Source of the DNA: Escherichia phage HK446
DNA length: 39,026 nt
Sequence record: NC_019714.1
Strand: one strand, 5' to 3'
Positions 3,979-38,641 of the stretch are shown in pieces. The first letter of the stretch is position 1. The number at the start of each line of letters is the position of its first letter. Both the position numbers and the translations under genes were made by a program. The notes under the pieces are model-generated. The model did no database searches and was not told where the DNA came from. It saw only the letters and a list, made by a program, of their open reading frames with translations.

Positions 3979-5133
3979 ATGTCTGAACTCGCTCTCATTC
4001 AAAAAGCTATCGAAGAATCCCAGCAGAAAATGACCCAGCTTTTCGATGCGCAGAAAGCAGAAATCGAAAGCACAGGCCAGGTTTCCAAACAGTTGCAGTC
4101 CGACCTGATGAAAGTACAGGAAGAGCTGACCAAATCCGGCACTCGCCTCTTCGATCTGGAACAGAAACTGGCATCCGGCGCTGAGAATCCTGGTGAGAAG
4201 AAATCCTTCTCTGAACGGGCTGCTGAAGAGCTTATTAAGTCATGGGACGGTAAACAGGGCACCTTTGGCGCTAAAACGTTTAACAAGTCACTAGGCAGTG
4301 ACGCTGGTTCGGCTGGCTCACTGATCCAGCCTATGCAGATCCCAGGCATCATCATGCCAGGCCTGCGCCGTCTTACCATTCGTGATCTGCTGTCTCAGGG
4401 CCGCACTTCCAGTAACGCTCTGGAATATGTGCGTGAAGAGGTGTTTACCAATAACGCCGACGTGGTGGCAGAGAAAGCACTGAAGCCAGAATCGGATATC
4501 ACCTTCAGCAAACAAACCGCGAACGTGAAGACCATCGCGCACTGGGTGCAGGCATCACGTCAGGTGATGGATGATGCGCCAATGCTTCAGTCCTACATTA
4601 ACAACCGCCTCATGTACGGCCTGGCACTGAAGGAAGAGGGCCAGCTGCTGAACGGCGACGGTACCGGGGATAACCTGGAAGGGCTGAACAAAGTGGCAAC
4701 CGCCTATGACACCTCGCTGAATGCCACCGGCGACACCCGCGCTGACATTATCGCTCACGCTATTTATCAGGTGACCGAGTCTGAGTTCAGCGCTTCCGGT
4801 ATCGTCCTGAACCCGCGCGACTGGCACAACATCGCGTTGCTGAAAGACAATGAAGGCCGCTATATCTTCGGTGGTCCTCAGGCATTCACCAGTAACATCA
4901 TGTGGGGCTTGCCAGTGGTTCCGACTAAGGCGCAGGCCGTCGGCACCTTTACCGTAGGCGGTTTCGATATGGCCTCACAGGTCTGGGATCGCATGGATGC
5001 CACCGTGGAAGTTAGCCGTGAAGACCGCGATAACTTCGTGAAAAACATGCTGACCATCCTGTGCGAAGAGCGTCTGGCGCTGGCGCATTATCGCCCGACA
5101 GCAATCATCAAGGGCACCTTCTCTGCTGACTAA
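3979..5133 (+). CDS. Major capsid protein, HK97 gp5-like
   Basis: 384-aa protein matching my recollection of HK97 gp5 (MSELALIQKAIEESQQ...), with coiled-coil delta domain; K169, N356 and E363 at the expected positions. Confidence 0.92.
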   Translation: MSELALIQKAIEESQQKMTQLFDAQKAEIESTGQVSKQLQSDLMKVQEELTKSGTRLFDLEQKLASGAENPGEKKSFSERAAEELIKSWDGKQGTFGAKTFNKSLGSDAGSAGSLIQPMQIPGIIMPGLRRLTIRDLLSQGRTSSNALEYVREEVFTNNADVVAEKALKPESDITFSKQTANVKTIAHWVQASRQVMDDAPMLQSYINNRLMYGLALKEEGQLLNGDGTGDNLEGLNKVATAYDTSLNATGDTRADIIAHAIYQVTESEFSASGIVLNPRDWHNIALLKDNEGRYIFGGPQAFTSNIMWGLPVVPTKAQAVGTFTVGGFDMASQVWDRMDATVEVSREDRDNFVKNMLTILCEERLALAHYRPTAIIKGTFSAD

Positions 5134-23196: not shown

Positions 23197-23501
23197 GATT
23201 TACTCTCCACGAACTGGTCAATAGCCATGCTAAGTGACACACCTAAAGTCTCGATATGCTGCTGAATATCCTGTAGCGTCTGCGCCTGAGATAACAGGAT
23301 TTCACGGTTGCATAACTCTTTAACCAGATGCTCAAACTTGCTGTAATAACCGATACGGCTTAGTGTTTCTTTCCCTGCATTCTCGCCTTCTTTGATAATT
23401 CCTCTTTCACTAAGAATCAGGTCGTGTTTGGTTCCGGTAATAACGTATTTGCCGAGGTCGATGTTTAGCTTCATTGTTTTCATTGTAAATTCCTCAGTCA
23501 T
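23193..23501 (-). CDS. Hypothetical early protein
   Basis: Start set at ATG (MTEEF) overlapping upstream stop; track ORF extends further 5'. Confidence 0.45.
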
Positions 23502-23787
23502 TACTGATAGCGCCATAGCGTGAGCGGTAATTACGCAGGCGCGGGTCAATTTCAGGGAAGTGGGTATATGTGGCTTTGCGGAATGGTCGGATTGATGTCT
23601 GGTAAATTCGCTCGCGTTCTTCTTTCTCTGCAAGCCATATACAATGGCGAAATTCCTTTTCCTCTTTCGTTTCCTGCGGTAGCGACATTATCAGGTCGTA
23701 GTTTTTTCTGAATTTATCCAGCACCTCCGATACGGAATTGCCGGAACAGCGGCGCGCGTCATCCGCACCATACAGAGGCGCTGGCAT
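23494..23787 (-). CDS. Hypothetical early protein
   Basis: 97-aa ORF in the coupled leftward gene chain. Confidence 0.45.
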   Translation of the reverse strand: MPAPLYGADDARRCSGNSVSEVLDKFRKNYDLIMSLPQETKEEKEFRHCIWLAEKEERERIYQTSIRPFRKATYTHFPEIDPRLRNYRSRYGAISND

Positions 23788-23810: not shown

Positions 23811-24194
23811 TCAGAATGGGATGGAATCGTCGTATACAGGATGATTTTGATGATTGCTACTTTGTTGCTGTTGGCTGTTTCCTGAAGTTGCAAATCCAAT
23901 CTTTGCATTCAGTAATTCAAGAGTGATTGATTGACCATTTTGCCCCTGATAAACATCAACCCTGATGTTTTCTCCGGTAATTTCCACAATGCCACCTTCA
24001 ACAAGAACACTACGGTAGTAATCCGCTTGCGCTCCCGGCTTGGCAAATACAACGGCGCTGTAATTTGTCCATTCTTTCTTTTTTGTCTGGCGATCGTAAT
24101 ACTGAACGCCAGCACGGATGTTGAATCCGATATTTTCCCCGGCCTGAAACTCTCTTGCGGGCTTGTTTAGTCTTACAGTAATCGAATGTGCCAT
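23811..24194 (-). CDS. ssb: Single-stranded DNA-binding protein
   Basis: Start overlaps erf stop (TAATG); OB-fold-like N-terminus; acidic C-terminal tail ...YDDSIPF, the hallmark SSB tip; track ORF opens upstream at a non-coupled start. Confidence 0.7.
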   Translation of the reverse strand: MAHSITVRLNKPAREFQAGENIGFNIRAGVQYYDRQTKKKEWTNYSAVVFAKPGAQADYYRSVLVEGGIVEITGENIRVDVYQGQNGQSITLELLNAKIGFATSGNSQQQQSSNHQNHPVYDDSIPF

Positions 24195-24799
24195 TAAGCA
24201 GCCGCTCCTTCTAATTCGTCTCGTCTGATGTTGTAAACGTCCTGCGCTTTGTGCTGCTCCGGTGTTCCTTCGAGCATCTTCCACGCTTTGGCGAACGCCT
24301 GTTTAAGCTCTTCCACGGTGTTTTTCTGCATTGCTGCGTCAGTGAATGCTTTTAGAACCTGTTCAGGTGTAGGTGATGGTTTTGATTGCTTTGCTGCTGC
24401 GTTCTGCTGATGTTTATGCTCGTCTGTATCTGCATCTTTCGCATCATCTATGCCGAACAAACCATTGAGGCAATACTTGCGTGCATAAGAGCTTGTAGCT
24501 CCCGTAACTTGTGCAGAATCCATTCCTTTCTTGCTTTCTTCCTCTCGTGCAAGAGCGGTTGCCGTATGACTGTTTTCGCCATCGGTAATAGTTGCCGTGG
24601 CTTTCACGTAATACCGATCACCAATCAACACAACTTCATCGCTGATTGATAAAAACAGGCCATTCAGCAGCGGCTTAACACCCTCAAGAATGTCTTCGCA
24701 GCTTCTGTATTTATATTTGCCGAATGAGTTGTATTGATTCTTTGGCGCGTTCAGATTCTCCTGAATAGCTGCCAGTCTTGCGTAAAATTCTTTGCTCAT
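24194..24799 (-). CDS. erf: Erf-family single-strand annealing recombinase
   Basis: MSKEFYARLAAIQENLNAPKNQYNSFGKYKYRSCEDILEGVKPLL... matches my recollection of P22 Erf N-terminal domain; start set at internal ATG. Confidence 0.8.
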   Translation of the reverse strand: MSKEFYARLAAIQENLNAPKNQYNSFGKYKYRSCEDILEGVKPLLNGLFLSISDEVVLIGDRYYVKATATITDGENSHTATALAREEESKKGMDSAQVTGATSSYARKYCLNGLFGIDDAKDADTDEHKHQQNAAAKQSKPSPTPEQVLKAFTDAAMQKNTVEELKQAFAKAWKMLEGTPEQHKAQDVYNIRRDELEGAAA

Positions 24800-24888
24800 A
24801 TGTTTGTTCTCAGAATGGACATGGCCCAAGGAAATAACGCTGATTTAATACTTCAGTCTTTGCCGCATTTAAAAATACGCGAACACCT

Positions 24889-25410: not shown

Positions 25411-25659
25411 CTACTCTATTTCTTCTTCGAATGATTTTATTAGTCGGTCAATAACATCATCCGTTTCAATATCATTTCCGTCTGATTGCTTTAATACATC
25501 TATTGATTCTGCAGCGGTAAACTCCATCGCTGTGAGAAACTCGACAATTGCACACTCAACGACATATCGTTCTTCATCTGTACGACATGAGATAAAAGAG
25601 CATTTAATTGCTGTTATTACTTTTTGTTTAAGCTCTGCAGGGTAATCAGTTTTTATCAT
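25411..25659 (-). CDS. Hypothetical acidic protein (82 aa) in the ral position
   Basis: GGAG SD; strongly acidic C-terminus (DGNDIETDDVIDRLIKSFEEEIE); first gene downstream of tL1-like terminator. Confidence 0.5.
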   Translation of the reverse strand: MIKTDYPAELKQKVITAIKCSFISCRTDEERYVVECAIVEFLTAMEFTAAESIDVLKQSDGNDIETDDVIDRLIKSFEEEIE

Positions 25660-34202: not shown

Positions 34203-34822
34203 GACTCGAAAGCGTGGCTAAATTTCATTCGCCAAAAAGCCCGATGATGAGTGACTCACCACGGGCCACGGCTTCTGACTCTCTTTCCGGTACTGATGTG
34301 ATGGCTGCTATGGGGATGGCGCAATCACAAGCCGGATTCGGAATGGCTGCATTCTGTGGTAAGCACGAACTCAGCCAGAACGACAAACAAAAGGCTATCA
34401 ACTATCTGATGCAATTTGCACACAAGGTATCGGGGAAATACCGTGGTGTGGCAAAGCTCGAAGGAAATACTAAGGCAAAGGTACTGCAAGTGCTCGCAAC
34501 ATTCGCTTATGCGGATTATTGCCGTAGTGCCGCGACGCCTGGCGCAAGATGCAGAGATTGTCACGGTACAGGCCGTGCGGTTGATATAGCAAAAACAGAG
34601 CAGTGGGGGAGAGTTGTTGAGAAAGAATGCGGAAGATGCAAAGGTGTCGGCTATTCAAGGATGCCAGCAAGCGCCGCATATCGCGCTGTGACGATGCTAA
34701 TCCCAAATCTTACCCAACCCACCTGGTCACGCACTGTTAAGCCGCTGTATGACGCTCTGGTGGTGCAATGCCACAAAGAAGAGTCAATCGCAGACAACAT
34801 TTTGAATGCGGTCACACGTTAG
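34199..34822 (+). CDS. Q: Late antiterminator Q (lambda-type)
   Basis: 207-aa protein matching lambda Q ([27 protein letters not shown]...), zinc-binding CRDCHGTG...CGRCKG. Confidence 0.95.
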
Positions 34823-34864
34823 CAGCATGATTGCCACGGATGGCAACATATTAACGGCATGATA

Positions 34865-34893
34865 TTGACTTTTTGAATAAAGTTGGGTAAATT
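34865..34893 (+). promoter_or_regulatory. Late promoter PR' (TTGACT ... TAAATT) with qut region
   Basis: Sequence downstream of Q matches lambda PR' as I recall it. Confidence 0.75.
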
Positions 34894-34899
34894 TGACCC

Positions 34900-35092
34900 A
34901 ACGATGGGTTAATTCGCTCGTTGTGGTAGTGAGATAAAAAGAGGCGGCGCTTACTACCGATTCCGCCTAGTTGGTCACTTCGACGTATCGTCTGGAACTC
35001 CAACCATCGCAGGCTGAGAGGTCTGTAAAATGCAATCCCGAAACAGTTCGCAGGTAATAGTTAGAGCCTGCATAACGGTTTCGGGATTTTTT
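34900..35092 (+). ncRNA. 6S-like late leader RNA ending at tR'
   Basis: Lambda-like leader sequence ending in the TCCCGAAAC...GGTTTCGGGA hairpin plus T-run; coordinates approximate. Confidence 0.5.
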
Positions 35093-35095
35093 ATT

Positions 35096-35170
35096 TGGGT
35101 CAGTCGTATAAAGGTCATTACGGAAGGCTGTTAACCTTCTTATCGTGGTTCGAGTCCACGCTGTCCCGCC
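35096..35170 (+). tRNA. tRNA-like gene, anticodon GTT (Asn) if folded canonically
   Basis: Hand-folded cloverleaf: T-arm CGTGG-TTCGAGT-CCACG, anticodon arm GAAGG-CTGTTAA-CCTTC, 3' CCA; one mismatch each in acceptor and D stems by my reading. Confidence 0.45.
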
Positions 35171-35175
35171 AAATA

Positions 35176-35251
35176 TGCTGGTTTAGCTCCAATGGTAGAG
35201 CAGTCGCCTTGTAAGCGAATGGGTAGCGGTTCAAGTCCGTTAACCAGCACC
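35176..35251 (+). tRNA. tRNA gene, anticodon TGT (Thr)
   Basis: Hand-folded cloverleaf: acceptor GCTGGTT/AACCAGC perfect, D-arm GCTC-CAATGGTA-GAGC, anticodon loop CTTGTAA, T-loop TTCAAGT, 3' ACCA. Confidence 0.65.
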
Positions 35252-35494
35252 ATAACTGAGCCGTAGCCACTGGCTATCCTGAACTCATCAGTGATAGTTA
35301 CGCTGCGGCCTTCTACACATGATCTTCGTGAAAGCGGGTGGCAGGAGGCTGCGCTAACAACCTCCTGCCGTTTTGCCCGTGCATATCGGTCACGAACAAA
35401 TCTGATTACTAAACACAGTAGCCTGGATTTGTTCTATCAGTAATCGACCTTATTCCTAATTAAATAGAGCAAATCCCCTTATTGGGGGTAAGAC

Positions 35495-35818
35495 ATGAAG
35501 ATGCCAGAAAAACATGACCTGTTAGCCGCCATTCTCGCGGCAAAGGAACAAGGCATCGGGGCAATCCTTGCGTTTGCAATGGCGTACCTTCGCGGCAGAT
35601 ATAATGGCGGTGCGTTTACAAAAACAGTAATCGACGCAACGATGTGCGCCATTATCGCCTGGTTCATTCGTGACCTTCTCGGCTTCGCCGGACTAAGTAG
35701 CAATCTCGCTTATATAACGAGCGTGTTCATCGGCTACATCGGTACTGACTCGATTGGTTCGCTTATCAAACGCTTCGCTGCTAAAAAAGCCGGAGTAGAA
35801 GATGGTGGAAATCAATAA
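35495..35818 (+). CDS. S: Holin S (lambda-type, dual start)
   Basis: 107-aa protein [43 protein letters not shown]... matches lambda S. Confidence 0.95.
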
Positions 35819-36918: not shown

Positions 36919-37647
36919 ATGTCCAATATCATCCCGATTGATTTCGAAGGCCATCCCATGCGTTTTTCTGACGATGGCTGGTTTGACGCGACTGCGGCAG
37001 CTGACAAGTTCAACAAGGAGCCGGCTCAGTGGCTTAGGCTTCCTGAGACTGTCCGTTACATCGAGGCGTTAAAGAGTAGATATGGGAATATCACATATGT
37101 AAAAACCAGCCGCGCTCGCAAAGACCGTGGCGGCGGAACATGGCTTCACCCAAAACTGGCGGTCAGATTTGCTCGATGGCTTTCTGTAGATTTTGAGATC
37201 TGGTGTGATGAGCAAATTGACGCAATCATTCAGGGTTCCGTTCATCATATCGACGATGAAAGAATAAAGGCTATTTTCCTTCTGGATAAATCTCAGCCAT
37301 GGGAAAAGAGGTTTAGCGATCCGTTTTATTCTGCGATGTTCAAAATGTCAGGGCTGCCCCGCCATCGACCAGGTCGTCGCCCAGCACTATTTGGGATGAT
37401 CAGTGCCAAGTGGGTATATGGCCCGGTATTACCACCAGAAGTATATGCAGAGGTTAAAAGACGGCTGGCTGCGGGAGACAAAATCCATCAGCACCTTAAA
37501 CCTGACGCGCTGACATTGGTTGAGCGACAGATCATTGCCGTTACCAGCATTGCCAATGGGTGCTCTGATTATCGTGATTTCGAAGCGCGTTGCATGTCGG
37601 CATTCCCGGTGAAAGGGCAGATGAAATTGCTCTATGCGGCGGCCTGA
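36919..37647 (+). CDS. KilA-N domain protein
   Basis: N-terminal MSNIIPIDFEGHPMRFSDDGWFDATAAADKF...WLHPKLAVRFARWLSVDFEIW resembles KilA-N/APSES-type DNA-binding domain; track ORF opens upstream. Confidence 0.55.
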   Translation: MSNIIPIDFEGHPMRFSDDGWFDATAAADKFNKEPAQWLRLPETVRYIEALKSRYGNITYVKTSRARKDRGGGTWLHPKLAVRFARWLSVDFEIWCDEQIDAIIQGSVHHIDDERIKAIFLLDKSQPWEKRFSDPFYSAMFKMSGLPRHRPGRRPALFGMISAKWVYGPVLPPEVYAEVKRRLAAGDKIHQHLKPDALTLVERQIIAVTSIANGCSDYRDFEARCMSAFPVKGQMKLLYAAA

Positions 37648-37907: not shown

Positions 37908-38299
37908 CCATTACAAAGCTCATCTGCGGGTGGGCTTGATAATGAAACCGGAGTTAATTTCTGGTCACTAATTAACGGCAGCACCGCGAAACAACCCAAG
38001 CCAGTAAGTGGGGAAATAACACTGGCAGCCACTGAAAGATGAACCTCCAGCCTTATGGCAAAAAAGATTCTTTGTGGTGGCGGGCTGATGGAAAGACATC
38101 GGTTATTGCAGAGGCCATTCAATGAGTGGTCTCGACAATGGCTTATACCCTGCACGGGATAACTTAACTGATATCCCTTTTAACGGATAAACGGAGCCAA
38201 CAATGGCAGAGATTATTCTCATGACTGAAGAACAGAAATTCCAGTTAGAGATTTACAAACTGGTCATGAACCAGAACGCCGCCGTGCATGGAGACTGGC

Positions 38300-38641
38300 A
38301 TGAACAAAGAGCCCCGCGTATATGGCAGCCGATGGGATAAGGCCCGTCTGCGTTTTCTCCAGCAGCACCCACTGTGTGTGATGTGCGAGCAGCAGGGGCG
38401 CATAACACCAGCAACGGTGGTCGACCATATCGTGCCCCACAAACTGAAAGATGCGCTTAAGTCAGGTAACCCTCTGGCCATATCGAAAGCACAGCTCCTG
38501 TTCTGGAGTAAAGAGAACTGGCAGCCACTGTGCAAAGCGCATCATGACTCAACGAAACAGAGAATGGAGAAGAGCGGCGTGGTAATAGGCTGTGATGCAA
38601 ACGGCTACCCGCTCGATCCTGCGTCTCACTGGAGGACATAA
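38300..38641 (+). CDS. HNH endonuclease (terminase-associated, HK97 gp74-like)
   Basis: HNH motifs CVMCEQQGR...VDHIVPH...N...PLCKAHH; located near cos upstream of terminase genes in circular order. Confidence 0.8.
   Translation: MNKEPRVYGSRWDKARLRFLQQHPLCVMCEQQGRITPATVVDHIVPHKLKDALKSGNPLAISKAQLLFWSKENWQPLCKAHHDSTKQRMEKSGVVIGCDANGYPLDPASHWRT

Follow-up and report, generated by a model that had tools for sequence, protein, structure and literature searches.

Stx phages of the 933W type carry tRNA genes downstream of Q and PR', at the head of the lambdoid late operon, and these genes specify Ile and Arg tRNAs that read rare codons. The paper describing phage SfI cites an ileX gene close to the stx2 operon and also places one or both members of an Asn–Thr tRNA gene pair at the same position in Sf6, ST64T, PS3, and phage 21 (PMC3636060), and this late-operon site is likewise treated in the phage L paper (PMC8022706). 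The phage 21 Thr tRNA (tRNA-Thr21) has been studied in connection with the OLD nuclease of P2 prophages, which kills lambda-infected cells by severing the anticodon arm from host tRNA-Thr(UGU), the sole decoder of ACA codons in E. coli (PMC12445682, Govande et al. 2025). In that study, P2-OLD cut paired CNG motifs (positions 28–30 and 40–42) on the 3' side of their C, whereas tRNA-Thr21 resisted cleavage, because its anticodon stem is shorter and the pairs by the cut sites are altered, and protected cells from P2-OLD. The rescue was partial, in an assay that used a plasmid-expressed tRNA and relied on Gam to trigger the nuclease. In the same study, the tRNAs whose cleavage kinetics were set against those of tRNA-ThrU, the fastest to be cut, included tRNA-Asn(GUU) (PMC12445682).

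A second nuclease, AriB of the PARIS system, targets tRNA-Lys and tRNA-Thr(UGU), as well as tRNA-Asn(GUU), and cuts between positions 40 and 41 within the sequence U36-A-A-U-C-N41 (PMC12409363, Belukhina et al.). Among tRNA-Lys mutants, U39A abolishes cleavage by AriB, while A41C and U16C reduce it (PMC12409363). Lambda is also restricted by PARIS (PMC9122126), and the tRNA-Lys, tRNA-Thr, and tRNA-Asn of phage T5 neutralize this system (PMC11464382, PMC12409363).

Here, we analyzed a 39,026-bp stretch of DNA from Escherichia phage HK446 (NC_019714.1), hereafter the window, which contains an Asn–Thr tRNA gene pair at the lambdoid late-operon position (Table 1). ARAGORN predicted exactly two tRNA genes across the entire window, tRNA-Asn (GTT) and tRNA-Thr (TGT), both on the + strand, and the corresponding pair of RF00005 matches were the only RNA hits at gathering level in an Rfam scan of the window. 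Both genes displayed a 7-nt anticodon loop, U33, a purine at position 37, G18G19, a UUCRA T-loop, and an encoded CCA end; these are genuine tRNA genes, and a chance origin is excluded. The initial annotation had described two tandem, CCA-ended tRNA-like sequences between tR' and the holin gene, to be checked with a tRNA finder. It was right about the genes and their location, although the coordinates it gave (35096–35251) were off by one base, the genes spanning 35097–35252. In a comparison of 10 cassette copies, 7 of the 151 tRNA positions were variable, compared with 12 of 62 in the non-coding DNA just downstream, and an E. coli plasmid-prophage (NZ_CP141750) carried a compensatory change from G5-C68 to U5-A68 in tRNA-Thr. 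Although the sample is small at 10 copies, the low variation and the compensatory change point to structural constraint.

Table 1 Features of the Asn–Thr tRNA locus in the window
Feature	Coordinates	Strand	Basis
Lambda-type Q antiterminator, 207 aa	34199–34822	+	ORF list; lambda Q same length
PR' late promoter, TTGACT / 17-nt spacer / TAAATT	34865–34893	+	Promoter scan; lambda identity
tR' terminator of 6S leader, long hairpin followed by U-run	35034–35094	+	Fold
Asn–Thr cassette as a unit, 159 bp	35095–35253	+	Lambda alignment; BLAST borders
tRNA-Asn(GUU), 75 nt, CCA encoded	35097–35171	+	ARAGORN; Rfam RF00005
Intergenic spacer AATAT between Asn and Thr, 5 nt	35172–35176	+	Sequence
tRNA-Thr(UGU), 76 nt, CCA encoded	35177–35252	+	ARAGORN; Rfam RF00005; phage 21 identity
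GC-rich hairpin followed by UUUU, terminator-like, outside the cassette	35334–35380	+	Fold; common to lambda
Holin S, lambda-type, 107 aa	35495–35818	+	ORF list; mEp506 and lambda annotation

The second gene, for which a UGU anticodon had already been proposed, was recovered as tRNA-Thr with an RF00005 score of 61.5 bits (35177–35249, E-value 4.2e-11; gathering score 29). It folds into a clean cloverleaf, with G1-C72, C2-G71, and discriminator A73, a U28-A42 pair in the anticodon stem, and a D-loop reading C14 A15 A16 U17; its oddities are C14 in place of the usual A14 and a G27xA43 mismatch atop the anticodon stem. Threonyl-tRNA synthetase recognizes G35 U36 together with G1-C72 and C2-G71, and all of these identity elements are present in the window sequence. 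The gene is identical to that of phage 21 over all 76 nt.

In three of the compared lambdoid phages, this second tRNA position is occupied by altered genes. JLK-2012 (988–1141 of the compared region) has a chimeric second tRNA, identical to the phage Thr gene for the first 26 nt and similar to host thrU thereafter, except that two pairs of the anticodon stem are broken, and ARAGORN makes no call. A tRNA-Gly(UCC) gene followed by tciA and tciB lies 3' of this chimera, as in P1. In phage L (488–559) and ST160 (about 487–558), the second tRNA is a diverged Thr homologue whose anticodon arm lacks 4 nt; it is annotated as tRNA-Leu(UAA) in phage L, carries no annotation in ST160, is called by ARAGORN in neither, and may be a decayed Thr copy.

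The first gene was scored at 55.3 bits against RF00005 (35097–35168, E-value 2.1e-9; gathering score 29), with discriminator G73, a 4-nt variable loop, and a GAAGG/CCUUC anticodon stem. The stem mismatches seen in the initial annotation are real (U4xU69 and U13xU22) and had led to the suggestion that this gene may be a degenerate copy. Under such a scenario, the first gene would be a decaying pseudo-tRNA, leaving tRNA-Thr alone functional, which would be compatible with the two non-Watson–Crick pairs, the short variable loop, and a thermodynamic fold that is not distinguished from shuffled sequences (z −1.7), although the same holds for the canonical tRNA-Thr. We nevertheless consider this scenario very improbable. 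The gene scores far above the gathering threshold and retains all of the conserved positions U8, A14, G18G19, the UUCGA T-loop, U33, A37, G73, and the CCA end. Asparaginyl-tRNA synthetase recognizes the GUU anticodon (G34 U35 U36) and G73, and these too are present in the window gene. All nine lambdoid copies tabulated (the window and eight other phages) share one anticodon-arm sequence for this gene, and the aligned tRNA-Asn sequences of the window, phage 21, JLK-2012, L, and ST160 are identical, i.e., the gene is unchanged in JLK-2012, L, and ST160 although the adjoining Thr gene has been recombined or has lost 4 nt. Copies vary little overall, and one change seen in phage Oslo, U69 to G, converts the U4xU69 mismatch into a U4-G69 pair. 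Since the Asn and Thr genes share only generic tRNA positions, the first gene, the more stable of the pair, is on its sequence, score, and conservation a distinct asparagine tRNA and not a copy of the Thr gene.

The two genes form a cassette that stands in place of an unrelated 163-bp segment of lambda (44782–44944), in which an Rfam E-value scan for a tRNA relic found nothing tRNA-like. Lambda-like sequence had been noted on both sides of the pair, and this was borne out by alignment: the window is 97.8% identical to lambda over 34823–35094 (lambda 44510–44781), a stretch containing PR', the 6S leader, and tR', and the similarity resumes at 35254, with 96.4% identity to the region upstream of S over 35254–35500. 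Phages with a Q21-type late region (21 and SfI) match from 35087 to 35314, while Sf6, BTP1, and Oslo match from about 35084–35087 through the start of the holin gene. Because the lambda match ends at 35094 and the Q21-type match begins at 35084–35087, the left joint lies in the T-run that the lambda and phage 21 terminators share.

A 171-nt cassette query was matched at 97.7–100% identity in about 40 phage records, including phage 21, Sf6, SfI, BTP1, SPN9CC, and mEp506, usually annotated as tRNA-Asn/tRNA-Thr. Among 5,426 complete E. coli genomes, 369 also contain the cassette, with tRNA-Asn/tRNA-Thr likewise annotated by PGAP. It is thus already known from publications and from annotations in hundreds of E. 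coli genomes and dozens of phage records, which the initial annotation did not point out; the statement there that lambdoid phages carry tRNA genes at this late-region site agrees with the SfI (PMC3636060) and phage L (PMC8022706) papers. Annotation is uneven in places: in AJ237660, an older partial record of phage 21, both tRNA genes (4695–4865) are unannotated and only a short 'aRNA' leader (4652–4701) is marked, and tRNA annotations are also absent from HF4s, phiv205-1, phi458, and Salmonella prophage-derived entries. Phage 21, Sf6, SfI, and BTP1 are 99.4% identical to the window over the 171 nt, and for phage 21 the sole difference is in the spacer at 35174 (T in the window, C in phage 21). 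Together with mEp506, these phages share with the window the Asn–Thr order, the 5-nt spacer, and the position between a late leader terminator and the holin gene. Most cassette carriers, however, have a Q21-type antiterminator, promoter, and terminator, whereas the window has lambda-type Q, PR', 6S, and tR'. Only 3 of the 196 phage records matching a 651-bp query covered it in full and share this arrangement, namely mEp506 (100% identical), phiv205-1, and Kapi1. A lambda-type Q/tR' joined to this cassette is therefore an uncommon combination.

The layout of the locus bears on when the tRNAs are made. The Q protein, which read-through of tR' into the tRNAs and lysis genes requires, is encoded in a region that is identical in mEp506 and annotated there as antitermination protein, and PR' was the sole sigma-70-like promoter found upstream of the tRNAs in a scan of 34700–35600, i.e., no independent tRNA promoter was detected in this interval. 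tR' folds strongly (ΔG −26.9 kcal/mol, z −6.0), and tRNA-Asn begins 3 nt past its U-run. Since the tRNAs have no promoter of their own and are placed after tR', they would be made only by read-through of tR' under the control of Q: transcription from PR' by a Q-modified polymerase passing tR' would include the tRNAs in the late transcript, from which host tRNA-processing enzymes would then excise both, as the layout suggests. Between the tRNAs and S, a further hairpin (ΔG −28.1 kcal/mol, z −3.25) may be one of lambda's tandem late terminators. Holin S is the first protein gene 3' of the cassette, and lambda-type R and Rz also lie downstream. The position of the pair is similar to that of the 933W-type tRNA genes, although the latter differ in the tRNA species encoded and are unrelated in sequence.

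We next considered what the pair may be for. Its two tRNAs keep the anticodons and anticodon loops of their host counterparts (UGU as in thrU, GUU as in asnT), but their anticodon stems differ at the positions read by the nucleases described above. In host thrU, positions 28–30/40–42 form the paired CNG motif CUG/CAG, positions 36–41 read UAAUCA, and the arm includes A27-U43 and C28-G42, with U16 in the D-loop; the corresponding elements of the window tRNA-Thr are UCG/CGA, UAAGCG, G27xA43, U28-A42, and A16. Similarly, the paired CNG motif CGG/CCG and the UAAUCC sequence of host asnT are replaced in the window tRNA-Asn by AAG/CUU and UAACCU. Both window tRNAs are hence altered at positions 39 and 41, tRNA-Thr also having A16 for U16, and both lack the paired CNG determinants of P2-OLD as well as the AriB determinants (U39 and N41, and U16 in tRNA-Thr). 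The anticodon arm of the window tRNA-Thr, including G27xA43 and U28-A42, fits the published description of tRNA-Thr21 and its shortened anticodon stem (PMC12445682); the published assay differs from the native setting in that it was plasmid-borne with Gam, whereas the window copy resides in a late operon of a phage encoding Abc2.

Based on these features, we favor, with moderate confidence, a reading in which the cassette is expressed late to provide replacement tRNAs that resist nucleases, and additional decoding of ACA comes as an overlapping benefit. Toprim tRNA nucleases of resident P2-like prophages or P4-like satellites, such as P2-OLD and PARIS AriB, would destroy host tRNA-Thr(UGU), and host tRNA-Asn(GUU) would be destroyed too; the phage tRNAs, with the same anticodons but other anticodon stems, would be spared and stand in for the lost host tRNAs, and late translation would thereby be kept going. 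Every late gene counted contains at least one ACA codon, and without thrU all of these genes would thus stall. For tRNA-Thr and P2-OLD, this role has been shown experimentally through the identical sequence (PMC12445682), while for tRNA-Asn, and against PARIS, it is suggested by sequence comparison. The proposal that tRNA-Asn may be a second nuclease-resistant variant is the only part of this reading absent from the literature searched.

Several observations sit less easily with a replacement role. The window tRNAs are only about 58–66% identical to their host counterparts and the divergence is global, so the loss of the motifs is not specific evidence of selection, and it could be a by-product of foreign origin. 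The cassette has no tRNA-Lys(UUU), the prime PARIS target, and alone could therefore not defeat a B185-type PARIS. Timing is a further concern, since the tRNAs are late whereas the known trigger of P2-OLD, RecBCD inhibition, is early; Q and N contain 4 and 3 ACA codons, respectively. Finally, the window phage encodes Abc2 and not Gam, the published OLD trigger.

The same two tRNAs could instead serve purely to supplement decoding of codons favored by the phage (ACA, AAC, and AAU), with no link to nucleases. ACA is indeed more frequent in the window ORFs (13.5 per 1000) than in a 50-kb MG1655 sample processed with the same ORF caller (5.5 per 1000), as are Asn codons (48 versus 37 per 1000). 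The same ACA bias was reported for SfI, at 17.3 versus 7.1 (PMC3636060), and AAC accounts for 24 of the 25 Asn codons in the phage L capsid gene (PMC8022706). However, the bias is not where a late supply would be of most use: ACA is rich in early genes that are translated before the tRNAs are made (33, 28, and 19 per 1000 in the O-like gene, N, and Q), and poor in two genes assigned by size and position only, at 5.2 per 1000 (2 codons) in the putative major capsid gene and 4.7 per 1000 in the putative portal gene. The idea that abundant late proteins need ACA was rejected on these same two genes. For Asn, the AAC share is not raised (57% versus 64% in the host), and the SfI authors found no bias accounting for the Asn tRNA (PMC3636060). 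Moreover, lambda copes with the same late region and zero tRNAs, and codon supply gives no reason for anticodon-stem differences that fall exactly on the nuclease determinants. As the whole explanation, codon supplementation thus appears unlikely, although still worth serious weight; the two ideas are not mutually exclusive, and we regard codon supply not as the main reason but as a benefit that overlaps with it, the phage using ACA about twice as often as the host.

Alternatively, the cloverleaves might have a role other than decoding, mainly as signals for RNA processing or stability (entry sites for RNase E or RNase P) or as targets for integration. The location just past tR' and before the lysis genes lends this some appeal, since excision of the tRNAs must cut the late transcript, and entry sites here would separate the 6S leader from the lysis mRNA. 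Yet such signals would need no conserved anticodons, identity elements, or CCA ends. In addition, cells with the identical Thr sequence were protected from P2-OLD in the published experiment (PMC12445682), and protection by the tRNA of a sister phage (Thr6) required the UGU anticodon. Taken together, this makes a role without decoding highly unlikely. An attachment-site function was considered for tRNA-Asn and rejected, as its 3' end does not match that of the host asn tRNA.

Asn–Thr pairs with the anticodons of the window are also found in phages unrelated to the lambdoids. In P1, trnA(Asn)-trnT(Thr) (2425–2578 of the compared region) has the same order with a 2-nt spacer but is located in the ban operon region, unlike the late-operon cassette of the window, and in the T5-like phage Cyrano (1473–1720 of the compared region) the two genes form an Asn-Thr-Ser tandem with 2-nt spacing. 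The Thr genes of P1 and Cyrano are about 77–80% identical to that of the window over the aligned stretch, and the Asn genes are clearly diverged. Both Thr genes keep the CUG/CAG motif but have G39, while P1 tRNA-Asn keeps U39. T5 itself encodes tRNA-Thr and tRNA-Asn with the same anticodons as the window, and in both phages there are substitutions at or around the AriB cleavage site, position 39 being no longer U. T5 differs in being virulent, in also encoding tRNA-Lys(UUU), and in having its genes scattered in a large tRNA region, where Thr and Asn are non-adjacent and not close relatives of the window genes in sequence. Overall, the anticodon arms of P1, Cyrano, and T5 vary in which nuclease determinants are lost. 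That the same pair recurs in unrelated phages hints at a shared pressure but is no proof of one. A broader view would be that the Asn–Thr tandem is a portable counter-defense module against Toprim tRNA nucleases, including a tRNA-Asn selected for resistance to cleavage, and that its pairing in lambdoid, P1, and T5-like phages reflects this pressure and not codon usage. We advance this only tentatively, as something a little short of an even chance.

Through the identical tRNA-Thr, the cassette is now tied to the classic interference between P2 and lambda, the latter having unrelated DNA at this position. If tRNA-Asn is resistant as well, the pair would represent a compact and transferable counter-measure of temperate phages to tRNA-cleaving defenses, and would be of use in marking such conflicts in genomes rich in prophages. 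The value of the locus as a discovery is small, and it is of interest mainly as context.

Other parts of the window were inspected alongside. The early-left operon encodes Abc2, a P22-type anti-RecBCD protein (23494–23787, − strand), as well as Erf, SSB, and an anti-restriction protein (24194–24829, 23811–24284, and 25411–25659, all − strand), the last being an 82-aa product corresponding to phrog_14587; together, these occupy the place of lambda Gam and Red. Abc2 and the other early-left proteins are candidate triggers for systems that guard RecBCD or sense anti-restriction, such as P2-OLD and PARIS. The structural half (window 1–25000) is nearest to the HK97-like siphoviruses HK75, mEp234, HK106, and HK633, with 97.5–98.9% identity over 83–86% of the query. 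The genome is thus a mosaic of an HK97-type virion, lambda-type Q, S, and R, and a tRNA cassette of the 21/Sf6 type. Past the lysis genes, near the right end, are an ORF of the KilA-N/P63C type (36919–37647, + strand) and one encoding an HNH endonuclease (38288–38641, + strand), as in the annotation of mEp506 and as is usual for HK97-like phages.
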